A stretch of DNA of 28,998 nt from Candidatus Eiseniibacteriota bacterium (lineage in GTDB: Bacteria; Eisenbacteria; RBG-16-71-46; CAVPCR01; CBDCWB01). Shown here one piece after another: positions 1-28,998 of this stretch. The stretch is taken from the NCBI GenBank assembly GCA_965223205.1, contig CBDCWB010000009.1, positions 1-28,998 of the forward strand, read 5' to 3'. The first letter of the stretch is position 1; each line of letters opens with the position of its first letter. The notes beneath the pieces were generated by a model. It did not search any database. It worked only from the letters and a program-made list of their open reading frames with translations, and was not told the DNA's origin. A program made the translations under genes and the position numbers.

Positions 1-2658
1 GCACCACCGGATCGGCTTACGACGCCAAGGATTGGCGGGGTGTAGTGCACTCCGGCGGCTATCACCAGCAGGAAGGGTATCTGCTCTACTACGAGGGCGG
101 AGTCAAAAAGGTGCGCGGCGGTGACGGAAACCCTGCGTACCAACTCCAACACTTCCCGCTCGCGTATAACATTTTGCCGGACCACGTTATCGACGCACTG
201 GCAAAGTATTTTGCCGCAACAGGCGCATCCTTCTACGACGCCTGGCGCTACGATGTGCACATGCAGCACCTCGAACGCTGGTTGGCGTTTAAGGAAGACG
301 GCGCTGACCTCATGACAAACGACGATGACTTCAACCTGATAAACAACAACGTGCTTGGCGGCAACTACTCGCACGCCAAGTACGAGCGCGGCGCCGTGTT
401 GTTCTTCCGGCGCATGCTCAAGCACACCGGGCTGGCACTCAACGCGGTGTGGATAAACGGCATGTATAACCTCAAGAGCGGGCTTGAGGAGGGCTGGTTC
501 TACTCGGCGTACGACGCGGCGAACCAATCGATGTACCCGACGGACAACGACGACGTGCGATCGATGTTTGAAAACATCGGCAACCCGGGGCCGGGCGTCG
601 ACAGCGACCTGTTGCTGCTCGAGTACATCAACCGCTGGGGCGCCAACACCGGACACATATTGCACCTTGGCAGTGCGACCAATTGGAGCGTCAACTCACC
701 GGAGACGCAGCAGCAGGGGCTTGAGCGCGCCGTGGGCTTGCGGTTCCGGCGGGACCGCCGGTGGACCGTGGCGCGGCTGGATAGAGTCCGATCAACATGT
801 GCCGTTTTACGACGGGGACGACAATCCAGCGCACCAAATGCGCCGGTTTGCGGACTACGCCAAAGGCCCAAAGGGGCGGCGCACCGAATATCACCTGTAC
901 GCCGACCCCGGCGATGTTACGCCGACGACGCTGCGCTACTCGGGCACTGTCCCGATTTGGCTCCCAACTACAGACCTGGCGCTGGGCACGTGGTCCTATC
1001 AGTGGATTGCGCTTGATCCGGACGACGGCACGAATAACACGATCGCCGCAAAGGCGCTGGTTACCGTCGCCGACCCGGCCGAGCTTCACTATGCGCCCGA
1101 CTTGGTCGACACGCCGACGCCCGCCGAGGGCGCGACAAACCAAAGCGCTTCGGGCGTCAATCTCACGTGGGTAGCCCCCCCAGACGCCGACACGTACGAC
1201 GTGCATCTGAGCACCGATGCTGCGGACGTGGTGTCGCGCACCGCGGGCTCAAAGATCCTTGACAACTCATCTTCAACGTCGGTGAGCACCGGCGCGCTGA
1301 CCCCGGGCGCCACCTACTACTGGTCCGTAGTCGCGCGCAATGCCGGCGGCGACATTGCTAGTGCGGTGTGGATGTTTACGGTCGAGATTGGGCCGTCGGT
1401 GACCCCAGTGATAGCACCCACGATCGCGGTGCGGGCGCCCGTGGCGACGGTGACGGCTGGCGCCGTTGCAACGCAGGTGGCGGCCCCAACGATCGCCGTG
1501 CGCTCGTCACAGGCGACCGTGACGACGGGAGCCGCTCTGACCTCGGTGACCGCCCCGACCATCGCCCTCCGCGCTGGGCTCGCGACCATCGCGGTGGGCC
1601 AGGCCACAACACAGGTTACAGCCCCCACGATCGCCGTGCGGGCTCCCCAGCTGACGGTCAGCACGGGCGCGGTCGCAACTCAGGTAGCGCCCCCGACGAT
1701 CGCCGTGCGTGCTGGGGTTGCATCGGTCGCGGTTGGACAGGTCACAACTCAGGTGGCTGCCCCCACGACCGCCGTGCGCGCGCCCCAAGCCACTGTGAGC
1801 GTTGGGCCTGTGACGACCCAGGTGACGCCCCCAACCATTGCTGTGCGCGCGTCACAGGCGACCGTGACCGCCGGTGAATCTACGACCCAGGTGGTGCCCC
1901 CGACCATCGCCGTCAGAGCTCCTCTTGCCACCGTGGCGGTGGGCCAGGTGGCGACCGCCGTATTGGCCCCAACGATCGCCGTGCGGGCTCCCTCTGCCAC
2001 CGTCTCGGTGGCCGGGCAGGTCTTGACGTCTGTCAACCCACCCGCGTGCGCTGTGCGGGCGCCGGTAGCGACGGTGACCGTCGGGCAGGTGTCGGCTGCT
2101 GTCGCAGCCCCGACCATCGCCGTGCGCGTGCCGCTCCTCACCGTGACCGCCGGCGCCCCGGGCCAGACCACCATCGTCTTGTCCCCAACCATTGCTGTGC
2201 GAGCGGCGGGGGCGACCGTGTCCGTTGGTGGCGCAACGACAACCGTCAGCCCGCCGACGATCGCCGTGCGGGTGCCCCAGATTGGTGTTGCGCGGGAGTC
2301 GACGGGCGGCGGCACCACGCCCCCAGCACCAGCCACCGAGCCCAGGCTGGTGATCGCAGACCCCGGGACGTCAACCGAGCTAACGTTCCGCCAAGACCCC
2401 TCGGCCCACCTGGACTATACGATCGATTGGGTGCGCTGCCTTGAAGGCGGAGATGCAATTGCTAGCTCGACCTGGTCTATCGCCGGCGACGTGCTCGGCG
2501 TCCTGGAGATGGCTAACGACAGCCGCCTCGGCACGCGCACTACCGTCTGGCTCACTGGTGGGCTTGACGGACAGGCCTACAAGCTCGTCAATCACATGCG
2601 CACGAACGACGGGCGCGAGTTCGACCGCACCTTCTTCCTCCGGGTGGAGGAGCGATGA
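1..2658 (+). CDS. Large virion-module protein, 5'-partial (runs off the window start). The N-terminal domain is unassigned and is followed by an Fn3-like domain, an array of 13 degenerate ~23-aa repeats, and a C-terminal domain. The reading frame changes from frame 0 (ORF 45..1016) to the +1 frame (ORF 484..2658) at about nt 735-775, so this is a frameshifted gene, a sequencing indel, or a pseudogene.
   Basis: Frame 0 is protein-like from the window start to about ...ETQQQGLERAVGL and then turns Arg-rich and junk-like. Frame +1 is junk-like before nt 740 and protein-like from ...GWIESDQHVPFYDG onward. The Fn3-like segment is NLTWVAPPDADTYDVHLS...ATYYWSVVARNAGG. The repeats have consensus PTIAVRAPxATVxxGxVxTQVxA. 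The stop at 2656-2658 overlaps the next ATG (ATGA). Confidence 0.6.
1415..2295 (+). repeat. In-frame coding tandem repeat of 13 units of about 69 nt (23 aa), degenerate at both the nucleotide and amino-acid level.
   Basis: The motif ac(g/c)atcgc(c/g)gtgcg(g/c) recurs with a 69-nt period (about 1421, 1490, 1558, 1627 and onward). The peptide units are PTIAVRAPVATVTAGAVATQVAA, PTIAVRSSQATVTTGAALTSVTA, PTIALRAGLATIAVGQATTQVTA and so on, through PTIAVRVPQIGVARE. Confidence 0.85.
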
Positions 2659-5146: not shown

Positions 5147-6160
5147 GTGGAGGTGGATGAGGTGCCTTTGGGACAAGCGGGGCTAGGCCCCGTACAAATG
5201 GACGACTTGCAGGGGGGCGGTAGACTCGCTCGAGCGATCGTTGCAACGAACGGTGACACGTCGCAACTGCGCAATGACACGACGCTGCGAGAGGACGACT
5301 GGGAGCGGATTGACGAGCGCGTGGTCACCGTGGCCACAAAACGCTTGGTTGGCTCGCAAGATCTCATTGCGCGCGGGTTGATTACACCGATCGACGGCAT
5401 GCGATTTACGCACGCCAGATACGAGAGGGTCTCGCGACTCAACGAGGCCGTGATGTCGATGGACGGTCAGGTGCGCTCACCCGCCGACCGACTGGTTTTC
5501 GAGCCGGACGGCACACCGCTGCCTATCACGCACATTGACTACAACATCAACCTGCGGGCACTCGAAGAGTCCCGAAACGGCAACACGCCGCTCGACACTA
5601 CGTCACACGGCATCGCCGCAGATGAGGTTTCTCGCAAGGTCGAGAAAACTCTGTTTAACGGGGCGGGTGGCTACATGTACGGCGGCTACGCCGTGTACGG
5701 CTATACCGACTTCCCGCAGCGCGTCACGATGGGGTTTGGTGTTGGCCCATGGTCCGCGGCAGCTCGCACCGGCGAGGAGATTCTCCTCGACGTGCTCGCC
5801 TTGCTCCAGGGGGCGATCGATTCAAACAAGTTCGGCCCCTATGGGATCTACTACTCGCGAAACGCTTCGACCAAAATGGCAGAGGACTTTAAGGCGAACT
5901 CCGACAAGTCGATCCGCGAGCGCATCATGGAAACGCCGGAGCTCCAGTTTTTCAAGGCTGCGGACTACCTGGCAGACGACAATGTGGTCTTGGTTAATTT
6001 AGACCAAGATACCGTTGAGATGATCGTCGGCTTGCAGGTCACACCGTTTGAGTGGACCGACGGGCCGGGATTCCAGCTTAACTTCAAGCAAGCCGCAATC
6101 TTGGTGCCACGCCTCAAGTCTGACTACCTCGGGCAGAGCGGCGTGGTCCACATGAGCTAG
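5147..6160 (+). CDS. Major capsid protein, HK97-fold, encapsulin/linocin-like family. The start is GTG at 5147 or ATG at 5198.
   Basis: LREDDWERIDERVVTVATKRLVGSQDL...PIDG and INLRALEESRNGNTPLDTTSHGIAADEVSRKVEKTLFNGAGGY align by eye with the encapsulin N-terminal helix and E-loop/P-domain regions (T. maritima encapsulin: LTEKQWQEIDNRAREI..., [39 protein letters not shown]). A GGAGGTGG lies upstream. Confidence 0.75.
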   Translation: MEVDEVPLGQAGLGPVQMDDLQGGGRLARAIVATNGDTSQLRNDTTLREDDWERIDERVVTVATKRLVGSQDLIARGLITPIDGMRFTHARYERVSRLNEAVMSMDGQVRSPADRLVFEPDGTPLPITHIDYNINLRALEESRNGNTPLDTTSHGIAADEVSRKVEKTLFNGAGGYMYGGYAVYGYTDFPQRVTMGFGVGPWSAAARTGEEILLDVLALLQGAIDSNKFGPYGIYYSRNASTKMAEDFKANSDKSIRERIMETPELQFFKAADYLADDNVVLVNLDQDTVEMIVGLQVTPFEWTDGPGFQLNFKQAAILVPRLKSDYLGQSGVVHMS

Positions 6161-6168
6161 GAGCGCAA

Positions 6169-6465
6169 ATGAGCGACAAACAAGCCGACAAGGCGCCGCA
6201 AAAGGAGGGCACCAGCAAGCGCTGGCGCCTTGTGAGCGGTGCACACTATCGCGATGGCAAGCGCCTGGAGGCGGGCGCTGTAGTTGAGTGCCCGGAGGAT
6301 GAGCTCGGCTCGGCCATCGACAAGTTCGTGGACGCGGATTCCCCCGCAGCATCGGGTGGCGGCGGGGTCAGCTCCGACGCCGTCGCCCAGATCGAGGCGC
6401 AGCGAGACGCGGCGCTTGCCCGCGTCGCAGAGCTCGAGGCCGGCGGCAAGGCCAAGAACAAATGA
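6169..6465 (+). CDS. Hypothetical small protein in the head module.
   Basis: An AGGAGC sits 6 nt upstream of the ATG. It is protein-like and coupled to the next gene. Confidence 0.55.
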   Translation: MSDKQADKAPQKEGTSKRWRLVSGAHYRDGKRLEAGAVVECPEDELGSAIDKFVDADSPAASGGGGVSSDAVAQIEAQRDAALARVAELEAGGKAKNK

Positions 6466-20446: not shown

Positions 20447-20757
20447 GGGCGCTACTCTGGGTGTTGCTCTGCCTCGCCCTTTGCCCCCAAGCCGAAGCGC
20501 ACCAACCGCCTAGTTGGGTACCCGTGGCCTATGGCAAGCTGTCGGCGACGCTCCCCATCATCCGCCTAGACGACAAGGATCGGATGCCCGGCGCACGCGC
20601 AACCTTCGGTCTCGAGTGGACCAAGCTCGGCAGCCGCTATTTCGTGACCGCCGAGTATCACCGCAACTTCGAGCAACTCAGTGGCGGGCGTGTGTGGCCG
20701 TGGCTAGACGCGGTTGAGGTGGGAGTGGGGTGGTACTTCTTGGATCCGGAAAGCTAA
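20443..20757 (+). CDS. Small secreted protein with an N-terminal signal peptide.
   Basis: The sequence begins MRALLWVLLCLALCPQAEA followed by a mature part. The ORF-track start at 19939 is rejected because 19939..20442 is Arg-rich overlap junk. Confidence 0.55.
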   Translation: MRALLWVLLCLALCPQAEAHQPPSWVPVAYGKLSATLPIIRLDDKDRMPGARATFGLEWTKLGSRYFVTAEYHRNFEQLSGGRVWPWLDAVEVGVGWYFLDPES

Positions 20758-21035
20758 AAACGAACGCCATATATCTGTGTTATGAATATTGTCCTCTCGT
20801 CTTCGCCGAATTTGTAAGAACACCCCCAGAAGCACCTCGCCCCGTTCGCGTCGATCTCGAATCGGAAGTCGGGCCGGCCCAGGTGTGTCGTTCCGCGCCT
20901 CGGACTTGATGCCAGCCGATGCAATGCAGACTCGACGCCGTCTAGCGCGGCGTCTTGGCACTCGTCGGGCAGGTTGTTCACCAGTTCGCGAAGCCCATTC
21001 TTGGCTGTATCAGTGATTCTGAGCTCGTAGCTCAT
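20754..21035 (-). CDS. RelE/ParE-superfamily-like toxin (93 aa).
   Basis: By-eye alignment to E. coli RelE: ...LASSPRRGTTHLGRPDFRFEID... against ...LESPRIEANKLRGMPDCYKIKL..., and ...ARCFWGCSYKFGEDERTIFITQIYG against ...YRLVYQVIDEKVVVFVISVG. It overlaps the upstream Panacea-like gene by 26 nt. The locus is lower-GC. Confidence 0.55.
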   Translation of the reverse strand: MSYELRITDTAKNGLRELVNNLPDECQDAALDGVESALHRLASSPRRGTTHLGRPDFRFEIDANGARCFWGCSYKFGEDERTIFITQIYGVRF

Positions 21036-21588
21036 TCATCACATCTGCGAGAGGCTGGCTCCTGCCCGCCTCTACGTCCGCTTCCCCAGCGAGCATGCTT
21101 GACAGACTGAAGCCCGAGTGCTTGCGAGCCGCGTTGTCAACGATGTGCATCGGCACATTCTCCTTTGGGCTCGCCTGGAGCATTGGCTCTGTCTTGTAGA
21201 CGACTTCTTCGCAGACGTACCTCGCGGACATGTTGAGATACGTTTCGCCAACGTAGCTCAAGACCTCTTGTTCTTCCACCGTGAAGTCGTCGTACGTCGA
21301 CTTCAGTGGTCGCAGGTCGTGCGCAGCGTATTGGCCGCATGAGACTTGGTTGTCCGCAACAAAGCCTTTGTTAGTTAGCTCTGAGAGCGCCTTATAGAAC
21401 CGCCTCGAATCAAACGGACCAAAGTCATCGTAAATGTACGTGAAAGACGATATGGGCACACCGCGATAACGGCGGGACTCCAGGTCGGCTAGGTAGACGA
21501 ACTTCGCCAACAGCGTGTGTCCGATTCCTGGGGCAATCTGCAGAAGATACAATAGTACCCGCGCATCGCGGCTGAGTTCATCAGGCAT
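21010..21588 (-). CDS. Panacea-domain (DUF4065)-like protein, the putative antitoxin partner (PanA-like). The start is the ATG at 21588, downstream of the ORF-track start.
   Basis: LLAKFVYLADLESRRYRGVPISSFTYIYDDFGPFDSRRFYKAL resembles the DUF4065 core (KLQKLLYxAQ...G.PLF...F.AW.YGPV....Y). An AAGGGGAAG RBS lies 5' of the ATG at 21588. Its 3' end overlaps the small toxin-like ORF. Confidence 0.5.
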   Translation of the reverse strand: MPDELSRDARVLLYLLQIAPGIGHTLLAKFVYLADLESRRYRGVPISSFTYIYDDFGPFDSRRFYKALSELTNKGFVADNQVSCGQYAAHDLRPLKSTYDDFTVEEQEVLSYVGETYLNMSARYVCEEVVYKTEPMLQASPKENVPMHIVDNAARKHSGFSLSSMLAGEADVEAGRSQPLADVMNELRAQNH

Positions 21589-21843
21589 CTTCTTCCCCTT
21601 CCGTTCCCAAGGCAAGTGTTCCAGTTCAGGTAACGGCGACCGCAACCACCAGCTTAACATGCAGACTACACAAAAGATGCGGTCTTGGTTTCACATTGTA
21701 AGGAGAAAACCGACCAGCTCCGGAGTCTGGTGGCTGCAACCAGCACTCCCCGGCCGGTTATCCAGCCTATCCATAGTAGCATCCCCCCTGCACTACACTC
21801 CGCCACCAGCAAAGGACGTACTCCTCAACCGTCGGACCCCACA
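21589..21843. promoter_or_regulatory. Divergent promoter/operator region between the Panacea-like operon (-) and the XRE regulator (+).
   Basis: A 255-nt non-coding gap between divergently oriented starts. It is lower in GC than the flanking genes. No motif was assigned with confidence. Confidence 0.4.
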
Positions 21844-22143
21844 ATGCCCGCTCGACAGATGCGCAGGAGGCGCGGCGACGCCAATCGTCGGCGCCAGTTT
21901 GGCGTTTGGCTCCGGGAGTGCCGGATCCAGGCCGGCTTGACCCAGGGCGAAGCCGCCGAAGCGATTGGGGGGACGTGCACCCGGTCGACTGTGTACCGCT
22001 GGGAGACGGGACGCCACGCTCCGCCGATCAACGTCATGGTGGCGCTCAAGCGGCTGTACGGGTTCGAGTGGAGCGAGGTCGAGGAGATGGCGCAGTTTCT
22101 CCCGATGCGAGACGACGCCGGGAAGAAGCGGGGCAGCGCCTAG
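21844..22143 (+). CDS. XRE-family HTH transcriptional regulator (99 aa).
   Basis: FGVWLRECRIQAGLTQGEAAEAIGGTCTRSTVYRWETGRHAPPINVMVALKRLYG is a classic Cro/C1-type HTH. No clear SD is present. It is convergent with the HEPN-like gene and overlaps it by 4 nt. Confidence 0.65.
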   Translation: MPARQMRRRRGDANRRRQFGVWLRECRIQAGLTQGEAAEAIGGTCTRSTVYRWETGRHAPPINVMVALKRLYGFEWSEVEEMAQFLPMRDDAGKKRGSA

Positions 22144-22604
22144 CTCTTTCCTTTGGCGGCTTTCTCGGGATCCATGGGCTCGTTTGGTATTAGCGCGAGC
22201 GAAACTTCGTCGATCGTCTTGTCGCAGATCTCGTCGAGCGTGGCTCTCAGGTCCTTGATCGCTTGCTTCATGAGAGCCAGGTTGTCCATTTTCCTGTCGC
22301 AATAGTCCTTCTGAGCGCCCTCAGTGATGTACAGGTTTGAGTGCACCACCTCGTTGCGCCGCTTCGCCATATCCTCGGCGCCTGGGATCGGGAGACACCT
22401 TTCCACGTCGCCGAGCGTTTTCTTGACGATGTCCTTGTCGGTCAGGCCCCTGGTGTCTTTGCGCATCATTAGATGCAATTTCATCGCTCGCTCAACAGCG
22501 ACGTACGCCAGCAGCGCTGCGGCGTATGGATACTTGCAGCGTAGCTCGCCGATGGCCTCAATTGTCTTTCTTTCAGCTTCTTGCATTCGTGTCCTTCGTT
22601 CCAT
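22140..22604 (-). CDS. HEPN-like protein (putative RNase fold) carrying an Rx4-6H motif.
   Basis: The motif AKRRNEVVHSNLY reads R-N-x3-H. The rest is an all-alpha composition. The start at 22604 has a GAGGA 5 nt upstream. It overlaps the 3' end of the GxxExxY gene by 32 nt. Confidence 0.45.
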   Translation of the reverse strand: MERRTRMQEAERKTIEAIGELRCKYPYAAALLAYVAVERAMKLHLMMRKDTRGLTDKDIVKKTLGDVERCLPIPGAEDMAKRRNEVVHSNLYITEGAQKDYCDRKMDNLALMKQAIKDLRATLDEICDKTIDEVSLALIPNEPMDPEKAAKGKS

Positions 22605-22983
22605 TTGTATCCTCGCTAGGGCGGTCAACGCCCTGGAAATCCGGTGCATCCTTGTCCGGATACGGAAAGTTCACCAGCACGCCCGAGGGGATCCCGATCG
22701 TTTTGAGGTAGGAGCGTAGCTGTGCGACGTGCGACTTACTAAGGCTGGCGGCAGCCTTCAGCTCGACCACGACTTTCCCATCGACGACGAAGTCGAGTTT
22801 GTGGATGCCCACCTTGCGGTTCTTGTAGAACACTTCGGTGGTTCTCTCGATCTCGTAGTTGATCCCGCGCAGCCCGAACTCCACGGCCATCGCCTCTTCA
22901 TAGACGACCTCGGCGTAGCCACCGCGCAACTCAGAGTAGACTTCGCAGGCGCAATCCTTGATTGTTTCTTGCAAGGTGCTCAT
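22573..22983 (-). CDS. GxxExxY family protein (PD-(D/E)xK nuclease-like fold).
   Basis: LRGGYAEVVYEEAMAVEFGLRGINYEIE...VGIHKLDFVVDGKVVVELKAAASLSKSHVAQLRSYLKTIGIPSGVLVNF matches the family signature (G.GF.E.VYE.AL..EL...G.......YK...VG.YR.D.LVE..IVELKA.....H.AQL.NYLK..G...GLLINF). Confidence 0.75.
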   Translation of the reverse strand: MSTLQETIKDCACEVYSELRGGYAEVVYEEAMAVEFGLRGINYEIERTTEVFYKNRKVGIHKLDFVVDGKVVVELKAAASLSKSHVAQLRSYLKTIGIPSGVLVNFPYPDKDAPDFQGVDRPSEDTNGTKDTNARS

Positions 22984-23009
22984 GGCAGTTCTTCTTTCCT
23001 GGGACACCG

Positions 23010-23606
23010 CTACATCAACTGATAGCTGCAACTTGTGCATGAAAATTCATGTGCAGAGTTCGTGGCGGCGCACTTTGGGCACGTCCATGGCTGGGCATCG
23101 CCCGAAGCGATCCATGGTTTGGCTGACGAAGCCGAAATCGCCTGATCCTTGTATGCGCCTACACCATACTGCACAGCAGCAATCAGCACGCACACCACGA
23201 GAAAGCGCCACAACCACGCGGTCCACTGTTCTGGCTTCCTTGTTGTTGGCTTCGTTGGTACCCCAATCGATCGAACGTGTTCAACACTAACCCAGACCAG
23301 TTTTCCCGCGTGTTTGCCCTCTAGTACGCGTACCTCACGTGACCACCACCCGTCACGACTTATCGGATTGCATGGCGTGCCGCTCGGAACACGAAAAACA
23401 ACGCCGCTGCTTAGTAGCTGTTTAACCCCAAGGTCATCGTCAGCCGCCAGAAACTGCCCGAGGCGATCGAGAGCGGCCTTAGAAGTTGCTGCAAACACGA
23501 GCTCTGAGTTCGCTCTTAGGCAATACTCTGCCCCCGCAGTTCCCTCTTGCTGGCCGGCAACTCCCATGAGAAACACCGTGGCTATCAGGCGGTTTGTTGT
23601 GCGCAT
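23010..23606 (-). CDS. Membrane protein. It has an N-terminal hydrophobic/signal segment, a soluble middle domain, an internal TM helix, and a C-terminal zinc ribbon (zf-ribbon_3-like).
   Basis: N-terminal MRTTNRLIATVFLMGVAG. Internal TM helix WTAWLWRFLVVCVLIAAVQYGVGAY. C-terminal WTCPKCAATNSAHEFSCTSCSYQL. An AGGGG RBS sits 5 nt before the ATG at 23606. It starts 8 nt after the TPR gene stop and ends 27 nt before the GxxExxY start. Confidence 0.55.
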   Translation of the reverse strand: MRTTNRLIATVFLMGVAGQQEGTAGAEYCLRANSELVFAATSKAALDRLGQFLAADDDLGVKQLLSSGVVFRVPSGTPCNPISRDGWWSREVRVLEGKHAGKLVWVSVEHVRSIGVPTKPTTRKPEQWTAWLWRFLVVCVLIAAVQYGVGAYKDQAISASSAKPWIASGDAQPWTCPKCAATNSAHEFSCTSCSYQLM

Positions 23607-23614
23607 TACGGCCC

Positions 23615-24844
23615 CTATCTCACTTGACGTTGAGTCTCTTCCACCTCCCAAACATCCCCGACCTCCCGAAATCCAGAAAGCGCTGCTTCAAAGTGTTGCT
23701 TCGCATCGTCGGCGCCGCCCAACGCCTGGAGCGCCACCGCGATGGCGCGGTGCGCGGCGGCGACCTCGAGCGGATCCTCGAGCATCTCGGCCCGGTCGCG
23801 GGCCGCTCGAGCCATGTGTAGCGCGCGGCGGTGGTCGCCCATTGCATTGTAGCAGTCGGCTTGGAGCCGTGTGCACTCCGGCCAGGTGTCACTGCGCGGT
23901 GATGGGTCCAGCTCGATGGCTCGGAGGAAGAGCCGGATGGCGACTTTGGGGCGCCCCTGGTCAGCGATGATGCGGCCCAGGTAGGCGATGCAGATGGAGT
24001 GCTGGCGCGGCCGGCCGTGCTTGATCGCTACACGAGCGCCGTCAATGGCTAGCTGCCTTGCGGCGCAAAGCGCGCCGGTCCTGCGCAGCGCTTCTGCACA
24101 GACAGCCTTTGTGCTTGCTGTTAGTGCGGCGAAACCTCGCGCTTTTGCCGACTGCTCTGCCGACTTGGCCACCTCAATGGCGTCCTCATGTCTGCCGAGG
24201 TGCATGCAACACACTGCGTGGTTGACCGCGGCGGCGATGTCGCTTTGCGGTGCGGTTGCGGCGGTCTGTGAGGCGGCGGCCGCGAGAATCTCCAAACCAC
24301 GCTCGAACCTTCGCATTCGAATTGCGATGCGTGCCCGTGCCCTGGCGGCGCCGACAGACTCCGTGTGCTGTTCGAGGTTGGCGTAGAGAGCACTCGCCGC
24401 CTCGAGCGCAGAGTCAGCTGCGGTTAGATCGCGATTGACGGATGCGAGCTTTGCCTTTGCCAGGAGCAGCTCGGCGGTCGCAACCATCGCGCTCGCCGCA
24501 TTTGCTACCGCGATCGCGTTCGCAAGATGCTCTTCAGCGTCTTCGATGGCCCCTGCTTCGCAGGCCACGCGCGACGACAGTGCGTGCGCTCGCGCAATCT
24601 CAGACGCGTCGACGCCGGCGAACAAGGAGCACAGCTCGGCCGCGGCGTCGCGTGCCTCATGGATCTGTCCAAATTGGAGAAGTGAGTGAACAAGCTGTAG
24701 GAGGCAGAAGTGGCGCGACGAGATGCCGAGGCTATTGTCCCTCAGTTGGTACTTGTAGCGCAGAACGGCTGCTCTGGGGTCTTCGGAGGGCGTGGCCACG
24801 GTGAGGTCGTCGACAATGGGATCGCAACCGCCCACCGTGGCCAT
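23615..24844 (-). CDS. TPR-repeat (all-alpha) protein of 409 aa with no recognisable HTH.
   Basis: Many Ala-rich helical hairpin repeats (...AIEVAKSAEQSAKARGFAA...AIRLFLRAIELDP...). A GGGAGG RBS is present. Start is 12 nt downstream of the small peptide gene. Confidence 0.6.
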   Translation of the reverse strand: MATVGGCDPIVDDLTVATPSEDPRAAVLRYKYQLRDNSLGISSRHFCLLQLVHSLLQFGQIHEARDAAAELCSLFAGVDASEIARAHALSSRVACEAGAIEDAEEHLANAIAVANAASAMVATAELLLAKAKLASVNRDLTAADSALEAASALYANLEQHTESVGAARARARIAIRMRRFERGLEILAAAASQTAATAPQSDIAAAVNHAVCCMHLGRHEDAIEVAKSAEQSAKARGFAALTASTKAVCAEALRRTGALCAARQLAIDGARVAIKHGRPRQHSICIAYLGRIIADQGRPKVAIRLFLRAIELDPSPRSDTWPECTRLQADCYNAMGDHRRALHMARAARDRAEMLEDPLEVAAAHRAIAVALQALGGADDAKQHFEAALSGFREVGDVWEVEETQRQVR

Positions 24845-24856
24845 GTGTCGACCTCC

Positions 24857-25063
24857 CTAGAGCAACAGCAGCAAGGTTGTGCCTAGGACCCGAAAAACGA
24901 CAAAACCCGAACCGGCTGCGCGCCCGCCGGTCTCATCGTCCTCGTCCGGCACTCCAGCCTCCTCACACCCACACTCCCCATCATCATCGCACGCCGTCGT
25001 TGGCAGCGGCGCTGCCAGAAACGCTAGAATCAGGCAAACGCTCAAAAGGCTGCGAACTCGCAT
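24857..25063 (-). CDS. Small secreted or membrane-anchored Cys-rich acidic peptide (68 aa from the ATG at 25063).
   Basis: Sequence MRVRSLLSVCLILAFLAAPLPTTA | CDDDGECGCEEAGVPDEDDETGG...GFVVFRVLGTTLLLLL. It has a signal-peptide-like N-terminus, a GCGC acidic core, and a hydrophobic C-terminus. A GGGAG lies 6 nt upstream. Confidence 0.45.
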   Translation of the reverse strand: MRVRSLLSVCLILAFLAAPLPTTACDDDGECGCEEAGVPDEDDETGGRAAGSGFVVFRVLGTTLLLLL

Positions 25064-25219
25064 TTTCAACTCCCAGGAACTTGGGGCACTCTGGCGCCCG
25101 GGCCGTCTTGGCTTGGCCCTTCCTTGGGTGCGATTCGCGTTGTACGGCGCAGATCCAAGCTAGCAAGTTTCTAGCGGGCAGGCAATAGGTTGTGCCGAAA
25201 GCCGTTCCCCGGAGGCTCG
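25064..25219. promoter_or_regulatory. Divergent lysogeny-control intergenic region. It contains the inverted repeat GCTAG-N7-CTAGC (25159-25175), a candidate operator.
   Basis: 156-nt gap between the peptide/TPR operon (-) and the tandem-HTH regulator (+). The repeat is gctagcaagtttctagc. Confidence 0.35.
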
Positions 25220-25753
25220 ATGCGCGACAGGGTGTCGCTACTACACGCACAGGGAGTGCGAAAAACCGTCGGCGAGTGGCTTAAGTGGCTCCGGTTGAAT
25301 AGCGGCCTCCGGTTGCCACGCCAGGCACAGCAGCTTGGAATCGAGGAGTCCGTGTTGCGGGATCTCGAAGAGGATCGGGCCGAGCCGAGCGCGAGCATTG
25401 CGCTGCGGCTTGCTGACTTCTACCGGCTCTCGGAGCGAGAGCTTAGGATCGTGTTCGGCGTGCCGCGCGGCATCGACGTCGATCCTCCTCTACTGCATAC
25501 ACGCACAGAAACCGCTACAATCGAGTCCATGGACCAAGTGGACCACATAGGAACTGCGATCAGGGAGGGGCGTGATCGTGCCGGCCTTACTCAGCAGCAA
25601 GTTGCCGAGATGATCGGAGCCTACAGACCCGACCTCTCCGACTGGGAGCGAGGCGAGCGCACTCCCAGTGCCGTTACCCTCCTGCGACTCGCCCGAGCGT
25701 TACGACTCGACCTCAATCGCCTCGCCCGAAGATTCTCGCTTGACAAAACGTAG
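25220..25753 (+). CDS. Tandem-HTH (2x XRE-type) transcriptional regulator, candidate prophage repressor.
   Basis: A GGAGG sits 4 nt upstream of the ATG. HTH 1 is LKWLRLNSGLRLPRQAQQLGIEESVLRDLEED. HTH 2 is IREGRDRAGLTQQQVAEMIGAYRPDLSDWERGERTPS. It is divergent from the peptide/TPR operon and lies 5' of xis-int. Confidence 0.65.
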   Translation: MRDRVSLLHAQGVRKTVGEWLKWLRLNSGLRLPRQAQQLGIEESVLRDLEEDRAEPSASIALRLADFYRLSERELRIVFGVPRGIDVDPPLLHTRTETATIESMDQVDHIGTAIREGRDRAGLTQQQVAEMIGAYRPDLSDWERGERTPSAVTLLRLARALRLDLNRLARRFSLDKT

Positions 25754-25796: not shown

Positions 25797-25884
25797 ACTC
25801 CCAGGGGGAGGCGGGTAGGTGGTCTTGGCATTGTCGCCGCCCGCCTCCTGGGGCAAATCACCCAACTCTACCACGATTGCCAAA

Positions 25885-26079
25885 ATGGCAAAGCGGAGAG
25901 ACCTCGACATCCTGCTGACTGCGGGAGAGGTGGCCCAGCTGCTCCGGACGACACGGAGAGCGGTCTACTCCCGGGTACAGCGGGGCGAGATTCCCGGGGT
26001 GGTCAGGGTGGGGCGGTCGCTCCGGTTCCAGCGGGCGGCGGTGCTACAGTGGCTCCGGGCGTGTGGCCCTCTAGAATAG
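25885..26079 (+). CDS. xis: Excisionase / AlpA-like HTH DNA-binding protein.
   Basis: MAKRRDLDILLTAGEVAQLLRTTRRAVYSRVQRGEIPGVVRVGRSLRFQRAAVLQWL is typical of the excisionase-family HTH. It lies immediately 5' of the integrase. Confidence 0.7.
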   Translation: MAKRRDLDILLTAGEVAQLLRTTRRAVYSRVQRGEIPGVVRVGRSLRFQRAAVLQWLRACGPLE

Positions 26080-26089
26080 GAGGGCTCAA

Positions 26090-27190
26090 ATGACCGTGAA
26101 GGTCCGGCCGTACCGTCGGGGTGGTTGGGAGGTGGATCTCAGGGTAGTGCTGCCAGACGGCAGCGAGTTTCGTGAGCGTCGCAAATCACCGCTAACGTCG
26201 CGAGAGGGATCGCGGCGGTGGGGTGAGGCTCGCGAGCGAGAGTTGGTTCGTCGGGGCTTTCGGCCCCGGCGCAACGTCAAGACGCTTGGGGGGTTCGCGG
26301 AGATGTATCTCGAGTACATGGCGAGCAATCGTTGCAAGCCTAGCTACATCGACGCGCACCGCAAGTTGATCGCGGCTCACCTTAGCCCGCTGCTCGGGCA
26401 GGTCAGGCTCGATGCCATCGACCAGCCGGCAGTGGAGCGGCTCAAGGCACGACTTTCGGGTCGGGCGGCGAGTACGACCAACAACGCGCTGATCTGCCTG
26501 AGTGCAGTGCTGCGCGCTGCTGTGGCGCTTGGTGAGTTGGGTGAGGCTCCCTGCGTCATTAAGCACGTGCGGTCGGTCGAGGCGGATGAAGTGGCGTTCT
26601 ACGACGTCGCAGACTACGCCCGACTAGTGTCGGCAGCGCGGGAGCAGGATCCGCGCACCCATCTCGTGGTGTTGCTGGGTGGGCGTGCGGGGCTCAGGTC
26701 CGGGGAGATGATCGCTCTCCGCTGGGACCGCGTTGACTTCCGTCGCCGGCAGATCGCGGTGACGAGCTCGTCATGGAGGGGTGTGGAGACGGCGGCCAAG
26801 AGTCGCCGGAAGCGCATCATCCCGCTGGCACAGTCGCTGTTGGATGCGTTGCGTGCTCATCAGCACCTGCGCAGTCGCTACGTCCTTTGTAGTGAGGACG
26901 GGGCGCCGATAGGCTACTACAAGATGCGAGGGTTGATCCGTCGCGCTTGCAAGCTTGCCGGTGTCGAGTTTCGTGGGGTGCACGTGCTGCGCCACACGTG
27001 TTGTTCGCACCTCGCCATGGCGGGGGTGCCTGTGCGTGTGATCCAGGAGATTGCCGGCCATCGGCAGCTGGCGACCACGCAGAGGTACATGCACTTGTCT
27101 CCTTCGCGCGTCGACGACGGCATCCGAGTGATGGATGCTCTTGGAGACGCTTGGGAGACGCAATCTACGGAGAGCTGCAAGTCGTGTTAG
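26090..27190 (+). CDS. int: Tyrosine recombinase / phage integrase.
   Basis: An AGGAGGG RBS is present. The C-terminal catalytic signature ...LRHTCCSHLAMAGVPVRVIQEIAGHRQLATTQRYMHL shows the H-x-x-R ... Y pattern. The N-terminal region is a core-binding domain. Confidence 0.85.
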   Translation: MTVKVRPYRRGGWEVDLRVVLPDGSEFRERRKSPLTSREGSRRWGEARERELVRRGFRPRRNVKTLGGFAEMYLEYMASNRCKPSYIDAHRKLIAAHLSPLLGQVRLDAIDQPAVERLKARLSGRAASTTNNALICLSAVLRAAVALGELGEAPCVIKHVRSVEADEVAFYDVADYARLVSAAREQDPRTHLVVLLGGRAGLRSGEMIALRWDRVDFRRRQIAVTSSSWRGVETAAKSRRKRIIPLAQSLLDALRAHQHLRSRYVLCSEDGAPIGYYKMRGLIRRACKLAGVEFRGVHVLRHTCCSHLAMAGVPVRVIQEIAGHRQLATTQRYMHLSPSRVDDGIRVMDALGDAWETQSTESCKSC

Positions 27191-27307: not shown

Positions 27308-27943
27308 CTAACGTGAAGCGTGGACGTAGTGCGCCTTGACGCGCCCCCAGCTTGCAGCCGCCACCGGCACCGCGCCAGGCGAGCAAGCGTTGTGACCGCC
27401 AGCCCCGACGCACACCCGGCCGCGATTCTCCGGGGGGATGACGGTTGAGACTCCAGATGGGGTCTTGACGTGGGTACCACCTGGCACGCTCGAATCGACC
27501 ATTTCGAAGCAGCCTGAACCGGCGCTCGAGAAGTGATGGCGACCGATCGGAGCGATGCTGCCGCCGGTGATCGCATCGAAGCTCAACCATAAAGTGGCGC
27601 CTTCACCAGTTCCCCACCGCGGGCTGGCGCCGTGGTAGTGGGAGATGTTCGATTGACAATCCCAGAGTCCGAATTGCCAATTCCAGCTCGGGTCGATCTG
27701 AAAGGCGACTTGGAGGAACGACACCGAGTCGTGGTGGCGAAGTGCAACCGCCACCGCCGGCGTCGTCATGCCGGCGACGTCAAGCGTGGGTTGGGTTGAA
27801 ACACAGTCGTAAGCCGCAGACTGGGCGCACGAGCCGAAAGCGCCGTCGAACGCGTGCGCGATGATTGTCGTGTTCTCATTGATTGCAAGCGCCGGTAGAG
27901 ACAGGCAAATGCTCAGGATAAAAGTGCAGATAAGACGAGCCAT
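27308..27943 (-). CDS. Secreted hypothetical protein (signal peptide MARLICTFILSICLSLPALA). It lies outside the prophage and is probably a host gene.
   Basis: Cys/Trp/His-containing mature part. It is convergent with the tRNA fragment. Confidence 0.5.
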   Translation of the reverse strand: MARLICTFILSICLSLPALAINENTTIIAHAFDGAFGSCAQSAAYDCVSTQPTLDVAGMTTPAVAVALRHHDSVSFLQVAFQIDPSWNWQFGLWDCQSNISHYHGASPRWGTGEGATLWLSFDAITGGSIAPIGRHHFSSAGSGCFEMVDSSVPGGTHVKTPSGVSTVIPPENRGRVCVGAGGHNACSPGAVPVAAASWGRVKAHYVHASR

Positions 27944-28279: not shown

Positions 28280-28998
28280 ATGGGACGCCCAGTCCGAACT
28301 GCCTTGGCCGCAGGTGCTCTATGGCTCGCTGCGCTGCCAACCGCTCGGGCTGAGTGGTCGGCTGATCCCGCCCTTAACTTGCCCATCGCTACGCAGCCAG
28401 CCGCTGACATCTTGCCGAAAGTCGCTGTCCTTGGGCCCGGTACCTTTGTTGGTTGGTTCACGGCCGCGGGCGGTGCCTTTGAGCTGCGCCTCCAGTACCT
28501 GGATGCGCGGGGCGTCCCACAATTTCCAGCCGGCGGGCTTTTAGTTTCTGACCATCCGCAGGCCTCATTCTTGGTCGATTGGGATTTGTTGGCCATCGAC
28601 AATGCCGCGGTCTTGGTGTTTGCAGACACTCGACACGGGCCCGACTTTGACGTCCATGCCTATCGCATCGACACCACCGGCAACTTCCTGTGGGGGGATG
28701 ACGGGGTCACCTTGTCAGCCAACGACGACCTGGATGCGGCGCCGCGCGTCGCCGTCAAGGGTGGAGGTTTTGCGGTAGTTTGGTCACGCCATCCAGATCA
28801 GGGCGATGGCGCGTTGATGATGCAATACCTCGACATGGATGGAGCGTCCCAACTGGAGCCGGGCGGTCGCCAGGTGGCTGGGTCGCCGGGCGAGTCCCCC
28901 GGGTTCGCATCGATTTCGACCTTTGCGCATGTTCCTGATCCAGCGCGCGGCGGCGCCGCCATTCCCTCCGTTTTTGCTTCCTGGGTGCGCGACGTTTC
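28280..28998 (+). CDS. Secreted hypothetical protein, 3'-partial (runs off the window end).
   Basis: A strong GGAAGGAGG RBS 7 nt upstream of the ATG. Signal peptide MGRPVRTALAAGALWLAALPTARA. The frame is open to the window end (translated by hand, no stop). Confidence 0.6.
   Translation, partial: MGRPVRTALAAGALWLAALPTARAEWSADPALNLPIATQPAADILPKVAVLGPGTFVGWFTAAGGAFELRLQYLDARGVPQFPAGGLLVSDHPQASFLVDWDLLAIDNAAVLVFADTRHGPDFDVHAYRIDTTGNFLWGDDGVTLSANDDLDAAPRVAVKGGGFAVVWSRHPDQGDGALMMQYLDMDGASQLEPGGRQVAGSPGESPGFASISTFAHVPDPARGGAAIPSVFASWVRDV

Follow-up and report, generated by a model that had tools for sequence, protein, structure and literature searches.

A candidate signalling pair in an uncultured prophage: a small, putatively exported acidic protein encoded beside a relative of the TPR sensors of sigma-54 activators

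Does a prophage outside the Firmicutes carry a peptide-signalling pair of its own? The question is raised by two adjacent minus-strand genes in a 28,998-bp public contig (~61% GC), which was analysed over its whole length and is referred to below as the window. The first gene is a 68-aa open reading frame (ORF), hereafter the small ORF, and the second, hereafter the TPR gene, encodes a 409-aa protein built of tetratricopeptide repeats (TPRs). An earlier note made from the sequence had proposed the two products as a secreted peptide and its receptor, of the RRNPP or arbitrium type, with a possible role in lysogeny. The window is a prophage, or the end of one, from an uncultured organism. We find that the nearest relatives of the TPR protein are the sensor domains of bacterial sigma-54 activators, most of which have a comparable small gene directly ahead of them, so that the pair resembles a signalling module that is conserved and as yet undescribed.

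The gene pair and its products

The pair comprises two genes and their ribosome-binding signals:
24857-25063, minus strand: small ORF, 68 aa, with ATG at 25063 and stop TAG at 24859-24857; signal peptide, acidic Cys-rich core and hydrophobic tail
25070-25074, minus strand: Shine-Dalgarno sequence GGGAG of the small ORF, 6 nt ahead of its ATG, read from the sequence
23615-24844, minus strand: TPR gene, 409 aa, with ATG at 24844; cytoplasmic all-TPR protein of about 9-10 repeats
24852-24857, minus strand: Shine-Dalgarno sequence GGGAGG of the TPR gene, 7 nt ahead of its ATG; its first G is the last base of the TAG of the small ORF

From the nucleotide sequence, both genes look real and translationally coupled. 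The 12-nt gap between the small-ORF stop and the TPR start codon (24845-24856) and the overlap of the GGGAGG with that stop were read in the sequence as described earlier. At 0.70/0.49/0.64, GC by codon position in the small ORF is distributed as in the TPR gene (0.71/0.51/0.72) and in the helix-turn-helix (HTH), excisionase (xis) and integrase (int) genes nearby, and in the same stretch stops interrupt every other frame except two antisense ones. The public NCBI/ENA record lists the 68-aa product among its called genes; read from an upstream TTG, the product would have 70 aa. The high, backbone-like GC content ascribed to both genes was found at ~0.64, which is the level of xis-int and lies inside the contig range of 0.56-0.71, with the correction that it exceeds that of the adjoining accessory genes (0.56-0.60).

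The small protein (MRVRSLLSVCLILAFLAAPLPTTA/CDDDGECGCEEAGVPDEDDETGGRAAGSGFVVFRVLGTTLLLLL) was analysed manually for a signal peptide and a hydrophobic tail, using 15-residue Kyte-Doolittle windows. It reads as a signal peptide (residues 1-24), a core of CDDDGECGCEE...VPDEDDE, a Gly-rich linker and a hydrophobic C-terminus of 16 residues, and hydropathy agrees with this layout, which the earlier note had given in outline. The N-terminus has a basic n-region (MRVR), a 15-residue maximum of 2.65 and T/A at positions -3/-1 before Cys25. The predicted mature part has 44 aa and a net charge of -9, with Cys as its first residue after TTA, and the last 15 residues of the protein, ending in ...GTTLLLLL, reach a transmembrane-grade score of 2.31. 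In bacterial lipoproteins the signal peptide ends in a lipobox, [LVI][ASTVI][GAS]C. The corresponding P-T-T-A-C of the small protein fits at positions -1 and -2 and does not fit at -3.

The small protein belongs to no family in Pfam, PHROG, NCBIfam or PADLOC; its only NCBIfam match was a weak one between its N-terminal region and MtsC (14.9 bits against a cut-off of 350). The proposed MYXO-CTERM-like or other sorting-signal peptide was discarded, as the C-terminus carries no basic cluster and matches no sorting-signal model, and no support was found for a TPR-regulated anti-sigma-like pair. Two further candidates were rejected. A u-spanin would require a longer mature protein and a gene inside a lysis cassette, and in PEP-CTERM/PrsT systems PrsT is a separate lipoprotein, while in PrsR a receiver domain takes the place of a TPR sensor.

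In the TPR protein, Pfam detects TPR_12, TPR_14 and TPR_MalT only. Neither a signal peptide nor an HTH or AAA+ domain was found, and PADLOC, PHROGs and NCBIfam returned nothing. The AlphaFold model is an all-helical superhelix of 21 helices with a predicted local distance difference test score (pLDDT) of 89.8 and a predicted template-modelling score (pTM) of 0.84, in which only residues 1-20 are disordered and the helices of residues 23-73 come ahead of the repeats.

Sigma-54 activator sensors and their upstream small genes

Relatives of the TPR protein were detected by an exhaustive HMMER phmmer search of 1.8 billion representative proteins, which gave 173 matches, 149 of them listed. The best single-stretch colinear matches, P0003 (E = 2e-24), P0004, P0006 and P0007 (E range 2e-24 to 1e-12), share one architecture: an N-terminal TPR region, followed by a Sigma54_activat AAA+ domain with the GAFTGA motif, and then HTH_8. 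GAFTGA or Walker A motifs are present in at least 22 of the 149 listed matches. Identity to the nearest relatives is 27-34%, colinear over residues ~45-404. With the closest of them, P0003, encoded on a 4.58-Mb contig, BLASTP aligned 323 residues at 33% identity, and the alignment ends where the phage protein ends. The relatives come from Krumholzibacteriia, Fibrobacteraceae-labelled and unclassified metagenome-assembled genomes (MAGs).

In terms of the architecture of these activators, the phage protein has the N-terminal TPR sensor, and both the GAFTGA AAA+ domain and the C-terminal HTH_8 are absent from it. Searches by tblastn with P0003, P0007 and P0014 recovered neither an AAA+ nor an HTH_8 remnant from any part of the window, and the TPR gene therefore appears to be a clean stand-alone gene. 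Judged by sequence comparison, then, the phage TPR protein is a stand-alone homologue of the sensor domain of sigma-54 enhancer-binding proteins. An alignment of eleven members revealed five conserved polar residues, N208, R280, R326, E360 and R366, all of which lie on A helices. In TPR proteins the A helices line the concave face.

Other searches added little. Exact look-up of the TPR protein gave no match, and word-indexed searches with the TPR protein and the peptide recovered only the query itself. The top match of a word-index profile search, P0152, was set aside as a generic TPR protein rather than a specific relative (BLASTP E = 0.016). No match was found by tblastn against 50,697 phage genomes. 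Three alignments, the TPR protein and the HTH regulator were used to scan IMG/VR, and none of them found a relative. A first genome scan with patterns from the window and P0003 gave nothing; a metagenome scan added only copies of locus L002, described below. No related prophage was present in the collections searched.

The genes next to the activators were then compared with the window. Directly upstream, on the same strand, lies a small gene of 95-130 aa in eight of the nine activator lineages inspected, at spacings from an 11-nt overlap to 76 nt. The eight counted are P0007, P0004, P0014, P0025, P0097, P0006, P0020 and P0147; the list below also includes P0122.
P0007 (loci L002/L003/L015): small gene of 100 aa upstream, 12-nt gap, as in the window
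P0004: small gene of 102 aa upstream, 11-nt gap
P0014 (L004): small gene of 97 aa upstream, 14-nt gap
P0025 and its 69%-identical Krumholzibacteriia homologue (L008/L010): small gene of 130 aa upstream, overlapping the activator start
P0097 family (L011/L012): small gene of 122 aa upstream, abutting the activator start
P0006 (L016): small gene of 116 aa upstream, 27-nt gap
P0020 (L017): small gene of 105 aa upstream, 76-nt gap
P0122 (L018): small gene of 122 aa upstream, 61-nt gap
P0147 (L019): small gene of 95 aa upstream, 76-nt gap

The pairing of a small signal-peptide gene with this TPR domain is thus conserved in bacteria. In each of the seven that were readable, a signal peptide occurs together with an acidic stretch and a hydrophobic patch. 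All readable small proteins have a basic and then hydrophobic N-terminus, with small residues at both -3 and -1 in all but one, and their mature parts are mostly acidic; the small protein of P0007, for example, reads MRIRRIRFTLLLLALGFSLLTSAPAWS/MNPIVEEQIVPDFDDGDAVATGG...FWAVRYL.... A hydrophobic or aromatic patch lies at a relative position of at least 0.82 in six of the eight non-redundant sequences scored, and the tails are mostly moderately hydrophobic (0.9-1.8). The motif G[DE]P.?D occurs in six of nine small proteins (L004, L008, L010, L011, L018 and L019), whereas six-frame ORFs from these loci contain it at a background rate of 0.0085 per 100 aa. The orthologous proteins of L008 and L010 are identical in their first 17 mature residues (DMQVATEGDPGDGNLSP) and diverged in the remainder, which suggests a conserved element at the mature N-terminus. 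No Pfam family is recorded for any of the small genes, and among the other called genes of these loci no comparable neighbour was noticed, some small genes being unread. In the literature searched, no description of TPR-sensor sigma-54 activators paired with small exported proteins was found.

Only P0053 (L005-L007) departs from this pattern: a small gene is missing upstream of it, and just downstream lies a gene for a Cys-rich peptide with a lanthipeptide-type leader (L006 6852-7079, the same in L005 and L007; ...VVAGG/TGQNCAQITGDCQ...CSC...). A sigma-54-like CGGCAT-N5-TTGCA element (CGGCATTCCGCTTGCA) lies at L006 6704-6719, 132 nt before the peptide ATG. With a chance expectation of ~0.05, it is only suggestive of peptide expression under the control of the activator. 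Upstream of the window pair and of the bacterial small genes, no sigma-54 promoter was found.

The window peptide has in common with the bacterial group its position directly upstream on the same strand, the signal peptide, the acidic mature part and the C-terminal hydrophobic patch. This recurrence bears on the possibility that the adjacency in the phage is incidental, with a small ORF that is silent or unrelated and a TPR protein that is a general scaffold. Long spurious ORFs do arise in high-GC DNA, and the peptide is a singleton without a detectable homologue whose similarity to the bacterial small proteins is not significant. However, the small ORF has its own GGGAG at optimal distance, its stop is overlapped by the Shine-Dalgarno sequence of the TPR gene, its codon-position GC is that of the neighbouring genes, signal-peptide features are present, and the same arrangement recurs in eight of nine homologous lineages. 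We therefore consider incidental adjacency very unlikely.

Three of the loci examined contain further observations. Downstream of the P0007 activator, L002 3205-7789 encodes a GGDEF protein, Wza, Wzz and a tyrosine-kinase-like ATPase, which hints that this activator controls exopolysaccharide or biofilm genes. In L019 (2501-5559, on a contig labelled 2x coverage) the P0147 activator is divided into three consecutive ORFs, for the TPR region (625 aa), AAA+ (323 aa) and HTH_8 (80 aa), either through frameshift errors or as a natural split activator with a separate TPR sensor. L001, the locus of the TPR-only protein P0152, also contains a gene at 5987-6301 whose 104-aa product shares the layout of the small proteins: a signal peptide comes first, and there are an acidic DDSSG...SDD region, a Gly-rich stretch and a hydrophobic tail. 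This gene adjoins one for an extracytoplasmic function (ECF)-sigma-like protein, 1.7 kb from P0152, and response regulators and histidine kinases are also present in the locus.

Proposed mode of action and comparison with known systems

Since the TPR domain is a regulatory module of the activators, its companion small gene is best read as encoding the source of a signal or the partner that is sensed. We tentatively favour, at somewhat under even confidence, a reading in which the pair consists of a co-inherited small exported acidic protein and a cytoplasmic TPR sensor, a phage-borne version of the bacterial module that lacks the output and acts as a ligand-gated, Rap-Phr-like adaptor. The steps that follow are inferred, from export and processing to the physical contact of both proteins, the target and the resulting biology. 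The small protein would be exported by Sec and its signal peptide removed. The protein, or a fragment of it, would then serve as ligand or partner in the concave groove of the TPR superhelix, near N208, R280, R326, E360 and R366. In bacteria, binding of the ligand would gate the attached AAA+/HTH output. The phage TPR protein has no output domain and so would have to act by protein-protein contacts, as Rap does. Its most likely target would be the cognate TPR-activator circuit of the host, reached through competition for the ligand or pairing with the host sensor. A less likely one would be the phage HTH regulator encoded next to the pair.

Several observations weigh against this proposal. In a set of 5.8 billion protein clusters, each of the two window proteins stands as a singleton, which puts conservation and co-variation beyond reach. 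When the window peptide was compared with the bacterial small proteins by Smith-Waterman alignment, with shuffled sequences as reference, no significant similarity emerged (L002 p = 0.027, the rest p > 0.08). A hidden Markov model (HMM) of eight bacterial peptides, which detects mostly signal peptides, ranks the peptide ORF third of 477 window ORFs with E = 0.48. The best pairing, with L002, aligns EEagVPDeDD with EEqiVPDfDD; the G[DE]P.?D motif is missing from the window peptide, and its tail is more hydrophobic than the bacterial tails. Given the lack of significant sequence similarity, its assignment to the class rests on position, spacing, layout and the homology of its partner. The nine lineages were picked unsystematically from the match list and stand without a control set of other activators. 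The small protein, once exported, would be in a different compartment from the cytoplasmic TPR protein, and no importer, opp or processing protease gene lies nearby. Finally, the likeness of the TPR model to RRNPP receptors is unspecific, as LGN/Pins, OGT and APC subunits score similarly.

This last point concerns the fold comparison, in which the best structural matches of the TPR model were MalT domain III and a phage Rap with bound peptide. LGN/Pins and TONSOKU followed, then AimR (22.9, 22.7), NprR-NprX (22.7) and pLS20 Rap (22.4), with RapH (21.6), RapI (20.7) and PlcR (18.8) lower. Foldseek against the PDB returned generic TPR proteins (LGN, OGT, APC subunits), with the best TM-scores for APPBP2 and apo RapI, and the only matches in BFVD were giant-virus TPR proteins of a generic kind. 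A profile search of the PDB detected NprR at no better than E = 4.5e-11, far below LGN, KLC and consensus TPRs. The predicted model is thus compatible with the shape of ligand- or peptide-sensing TPR superhelices, whereas homology of the TPR protein to an RRNPP subfamily is not demonstrable from its sequence. MalT differs in that it senses a sugar, not a peptide, through a sensor C-terminal to a STAND NTPase, and we know of no partner small gene for it.

The alternative suggested by the earlier note is an arbitrium- or RRNPP-type lysis-lysogeny system, in which the peptide would be secreted, trimmed, re-imported and bound by a TPR receptor that controls the tandem-HTH gene or xis-int. RRNPP propeptides have a Sec/SPI signal sequence or are SHPs exported by PptAB, their mature peptides are taken up again through Opp, and the receptors act through an N-terminal HTH or through a Rap-type helical bundle at the N-terminus that works on a partner protein. 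RRNPP_detector looks for a propeptide gene of 10-100 aa adjacent to the receptor gene at an intergenic distance of -60 to 400 bp (PMC10075063). The pair agrees with five computational RRNPP criteria: a small adjacent gene, a Sec-type signal peptide, a receptor of 250-500 aa, TPRs and the intergenic distance. In addition, it is divergent from an HTH regulator and lies beside xis-int, and the top structural neighbours of the TPR model include phage Rap, AimR and NprR. However, the sequence relatives are sigma-54 activator sensors rather than RRNPP receptors, and they occur in Krumholzibacteriia and similar MAGs, whereas reports of RRNPPA systems are confined to the Firmicutes and mobile elements of that group (PMC9765709). 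AimR binds DNA through an N-terminal HTH; Pfam finds none in the window TPR protein, which therefore cannot work like AimR. The aimP gene follows aimR and yields a hydrophilic 6-aa peptide, whereas the window gene is upstream and its product ends in 16 hydrophobic residues, with a transmembrane-grade tail in place of a short hydrophilic C-terminal pheromone. No aimX-like target was identified. Furthermore, the pair ends a minus-strand accessory block encoding Panacea-domain, PD-(D/E)XK and HEPN-like proteins, the repressor role of the HTH gene is unproven, and there is no related prophage for comparison. We regard a system of this kind as quite improbable.

Among known systems, Rap-Phr (phi3T, Phi105, ICEBs1 RapI-PhrI, pLS20 Rap) offers the closer parallel to the favoured adaptor reading. 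Its receptors are likewise cytoplasmic TPR-only proteins of ~350-400 aa with no DNA-binding domain, and on the temperate phage or mobile element that carries it each receptor gene adjoins a small one whose product is a Sec-exported propeptide. The Rap proteins of Bacillus phages and ICEBs1 act by protein-protein contact on host or element regulators (PMC8027211, PMC9765709). Unlike Rap-Phr, in which the peptide gene is downstream or overlapping, the window has its peptide gene upstream; the peptide tail is strongly hydrophobic, the TPR protein has no detectable sequence relationship to Rap, and the background is apparently non-Firmicute (~61% GC, Krumholzibacteriia-type MAG relatives). The uncharacterised TPR-sigma-54 activators (for example P0003, P0007, P0014, P0025 and P0097) are the nearest in sequence and share N208, R280, R326, E360 and R366; as in the window, a gene for a small exported acidic protein comes first and the activator gene follows closely. 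They differ from the phage protein in their AAA+ (GAFTGA) and HTH_8 outputs, in small proteins of 95-130 aa that often contain G[DE]PxD, and in loci that are chromosomal rather than phage-borne.

The remaining rival involves no signalling. The small product could be an envelope protein of the lysogen, such as a membrane- or lipid-anchored exclusion or conversion factor, and the TPR protein its escort, its chaperone or a secretion-coupled regulator. TPR chaperones of hydrophobic secreted partners are well known, for example the class II chaperones for type III secretion translocators. The signal peptide, the C-terminus of membrane-spanning grade (Kyte-Doolittle 2.31) and the Cys that would be the first mature residue after TTA agree with such a role, as do the location of the pair within an accessory block and the membrane protein encoded by the next gene. 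However, the same TPR domain is fused to a transcriptional activator in bacteria, which points to sensing rather than chaperoning. The tails of the bacterial small proteins are mostly only moderately hydrophobic (0.9-1.8), the lipobox departs from the canonical one in having T at -3 and P at -4, and no exclusion, spanin or defence family was matched. An envelope function with a TPR chaperone is therefore judged unlikely.

The earlier idea of a peptide-TPR signalling pair finds partial support: the two genes are real and tightly coupled, and the recurrence of the pairing in eight of nine bacterial lineages strengthens it. Its tie to lysis and lysogeny is one of position only, and neither that tie nor membership of the RRNPP or arbitrium systems is supported. 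The favoured reading can be widened into a peptide-signal/TPR-receptor system outside the Firmicutes, comprising a widespread, undescribed bacterial class in which the TPR domain of a sigma-54 activator would sense a small exported protein, and a receptor-only prophage derivative with a signal gene of its own that would listen to or jam the host circuit or gauge phage density; it would resemble phage Rap-Phr and arbitrium in function while having arisen independently. Taken as a whole, this wider proposal would be rather unlikely. A phage from a high-GC, apparently non-Firmicute background here carries the two-gene logic of peptide-TPR-receptor communication, which, arbitrium and phage Rap-Phr included, is so far known from Firmicutes only. 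If the small proteins are the ligands of the sensors, sigma-54 regulators that respond to peptides or proteins would form a new class, and the window would offer the first case in which a phage has acquired the sensing half of one of these circuits. The idea is directly testable with the concrete pairs available (the window, L002, L004, L008/L010, L011 and L016-L019).

Prophage context and neighbouring genes

The surroundings of the pair, apart from the genes themselves, are as follows:
1-20.7 kb, plus strand: phage structural genes, including a major head protein (phrog_771/264), a minor tail protein and a Gp77 fibre-tail adaptor domain
after the structural genes, minus strand: accessory-gene block with a 93-aa ORF, a SocA/Panacea gene, a HEPN-like ORF, a PD-(D/E)XK gene and a 198-aa membrane protein
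21685-22143, plus strand: second XRE-type HTH gene, 152 aa, best PHROG "transcriptional repressor", amid the minus-strand accessory genes
23010-23606, minus strand: 198-aa membrane protein with an N-terminal signal or anchor, one internal transmembrane helix and a C-terminal CPKC...CTSC zinc ribbon
25064-25219: divergent intergenic region of 156 nt between the small ORF and the tandem-HTH gene
25220-25753, plus strand: regulator oriented divergently from the pair, with tandem XRE-type HTHs (two HTH_3 domains) and without a peptidase domain
25819-26079, plus strand: HTH_17 gene (excisionase/AlpA-type, xis-like; Pfam)
26090-27190, plus strand: tyrosine integrase (Pfam)

The pair had been placed at the heart of a lysogeny module, opposite a CI-like repressor. 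The divergent tandem-HTH gene and the nearby xis-int were indeed present. The CI-like role and the central position were not established, because the tandem-HTH protein has no S24 peptidase domain, its gene is co-directional with xis-int, and the second XRE-type HTH gene at 21685-22143 is an alternative candidate for the prophage repressor. The mechanical ORF of the tandem-HTH gene begins at TTG 25190; ATG 25220, with a GGAGG 4 nt before it, is the more likely start. The 156-nt divergent region is presumed to be the shared control region of this gene and the pair, and no sigma-70 or sigma-54 consensus promoter was found in it. Scans for sigma-70 promoters and terminators gave nothing informative.

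The gene for the 198-aa membrane protein begins 8 nt past the TPR stop and may be the third gene of the transcript of the pair. Its GC content at third codon positions (GC3) is 0.55, below that of the pair, it has no family match, and it lies outside the conserved pair.

Within the accessory block, the gene for a 216-aa SocA/Panacea antitoxin-domain protein (20754-21660, minus strand) shares 26 nt with the 93-aa ORF, and the two possibly form a toxin-antitoxin pair. At 22140-23040 (minus strand), the genes for a PD-(D/E)XK protein (PDDEXK_3, weakly Cas4-like) and a 169-aa ORF with weak HEPN similarity overlap at their ends and may have defence or accessory functions.

Two ORFs on the right-hand side of int (27308-27943, minus strand; ~28290-28998, plus strand), each with a Sec-type signal peptide, probably belong to the host flank. 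No tRNA, terminal repeat or att repeat was identified in the window, which leaves the prophage boundary undefined. Among the structural proteins, the major capsid protein has only distant relatives, at no more than 36% identity, and a 724-aa protein (484-2658, plus strand) consists of ~17 tandem units of the APTIAVRAPxATVTxG type, an fn3 domain and the C-terminal Gp77 fibre-tail adaptor domain.

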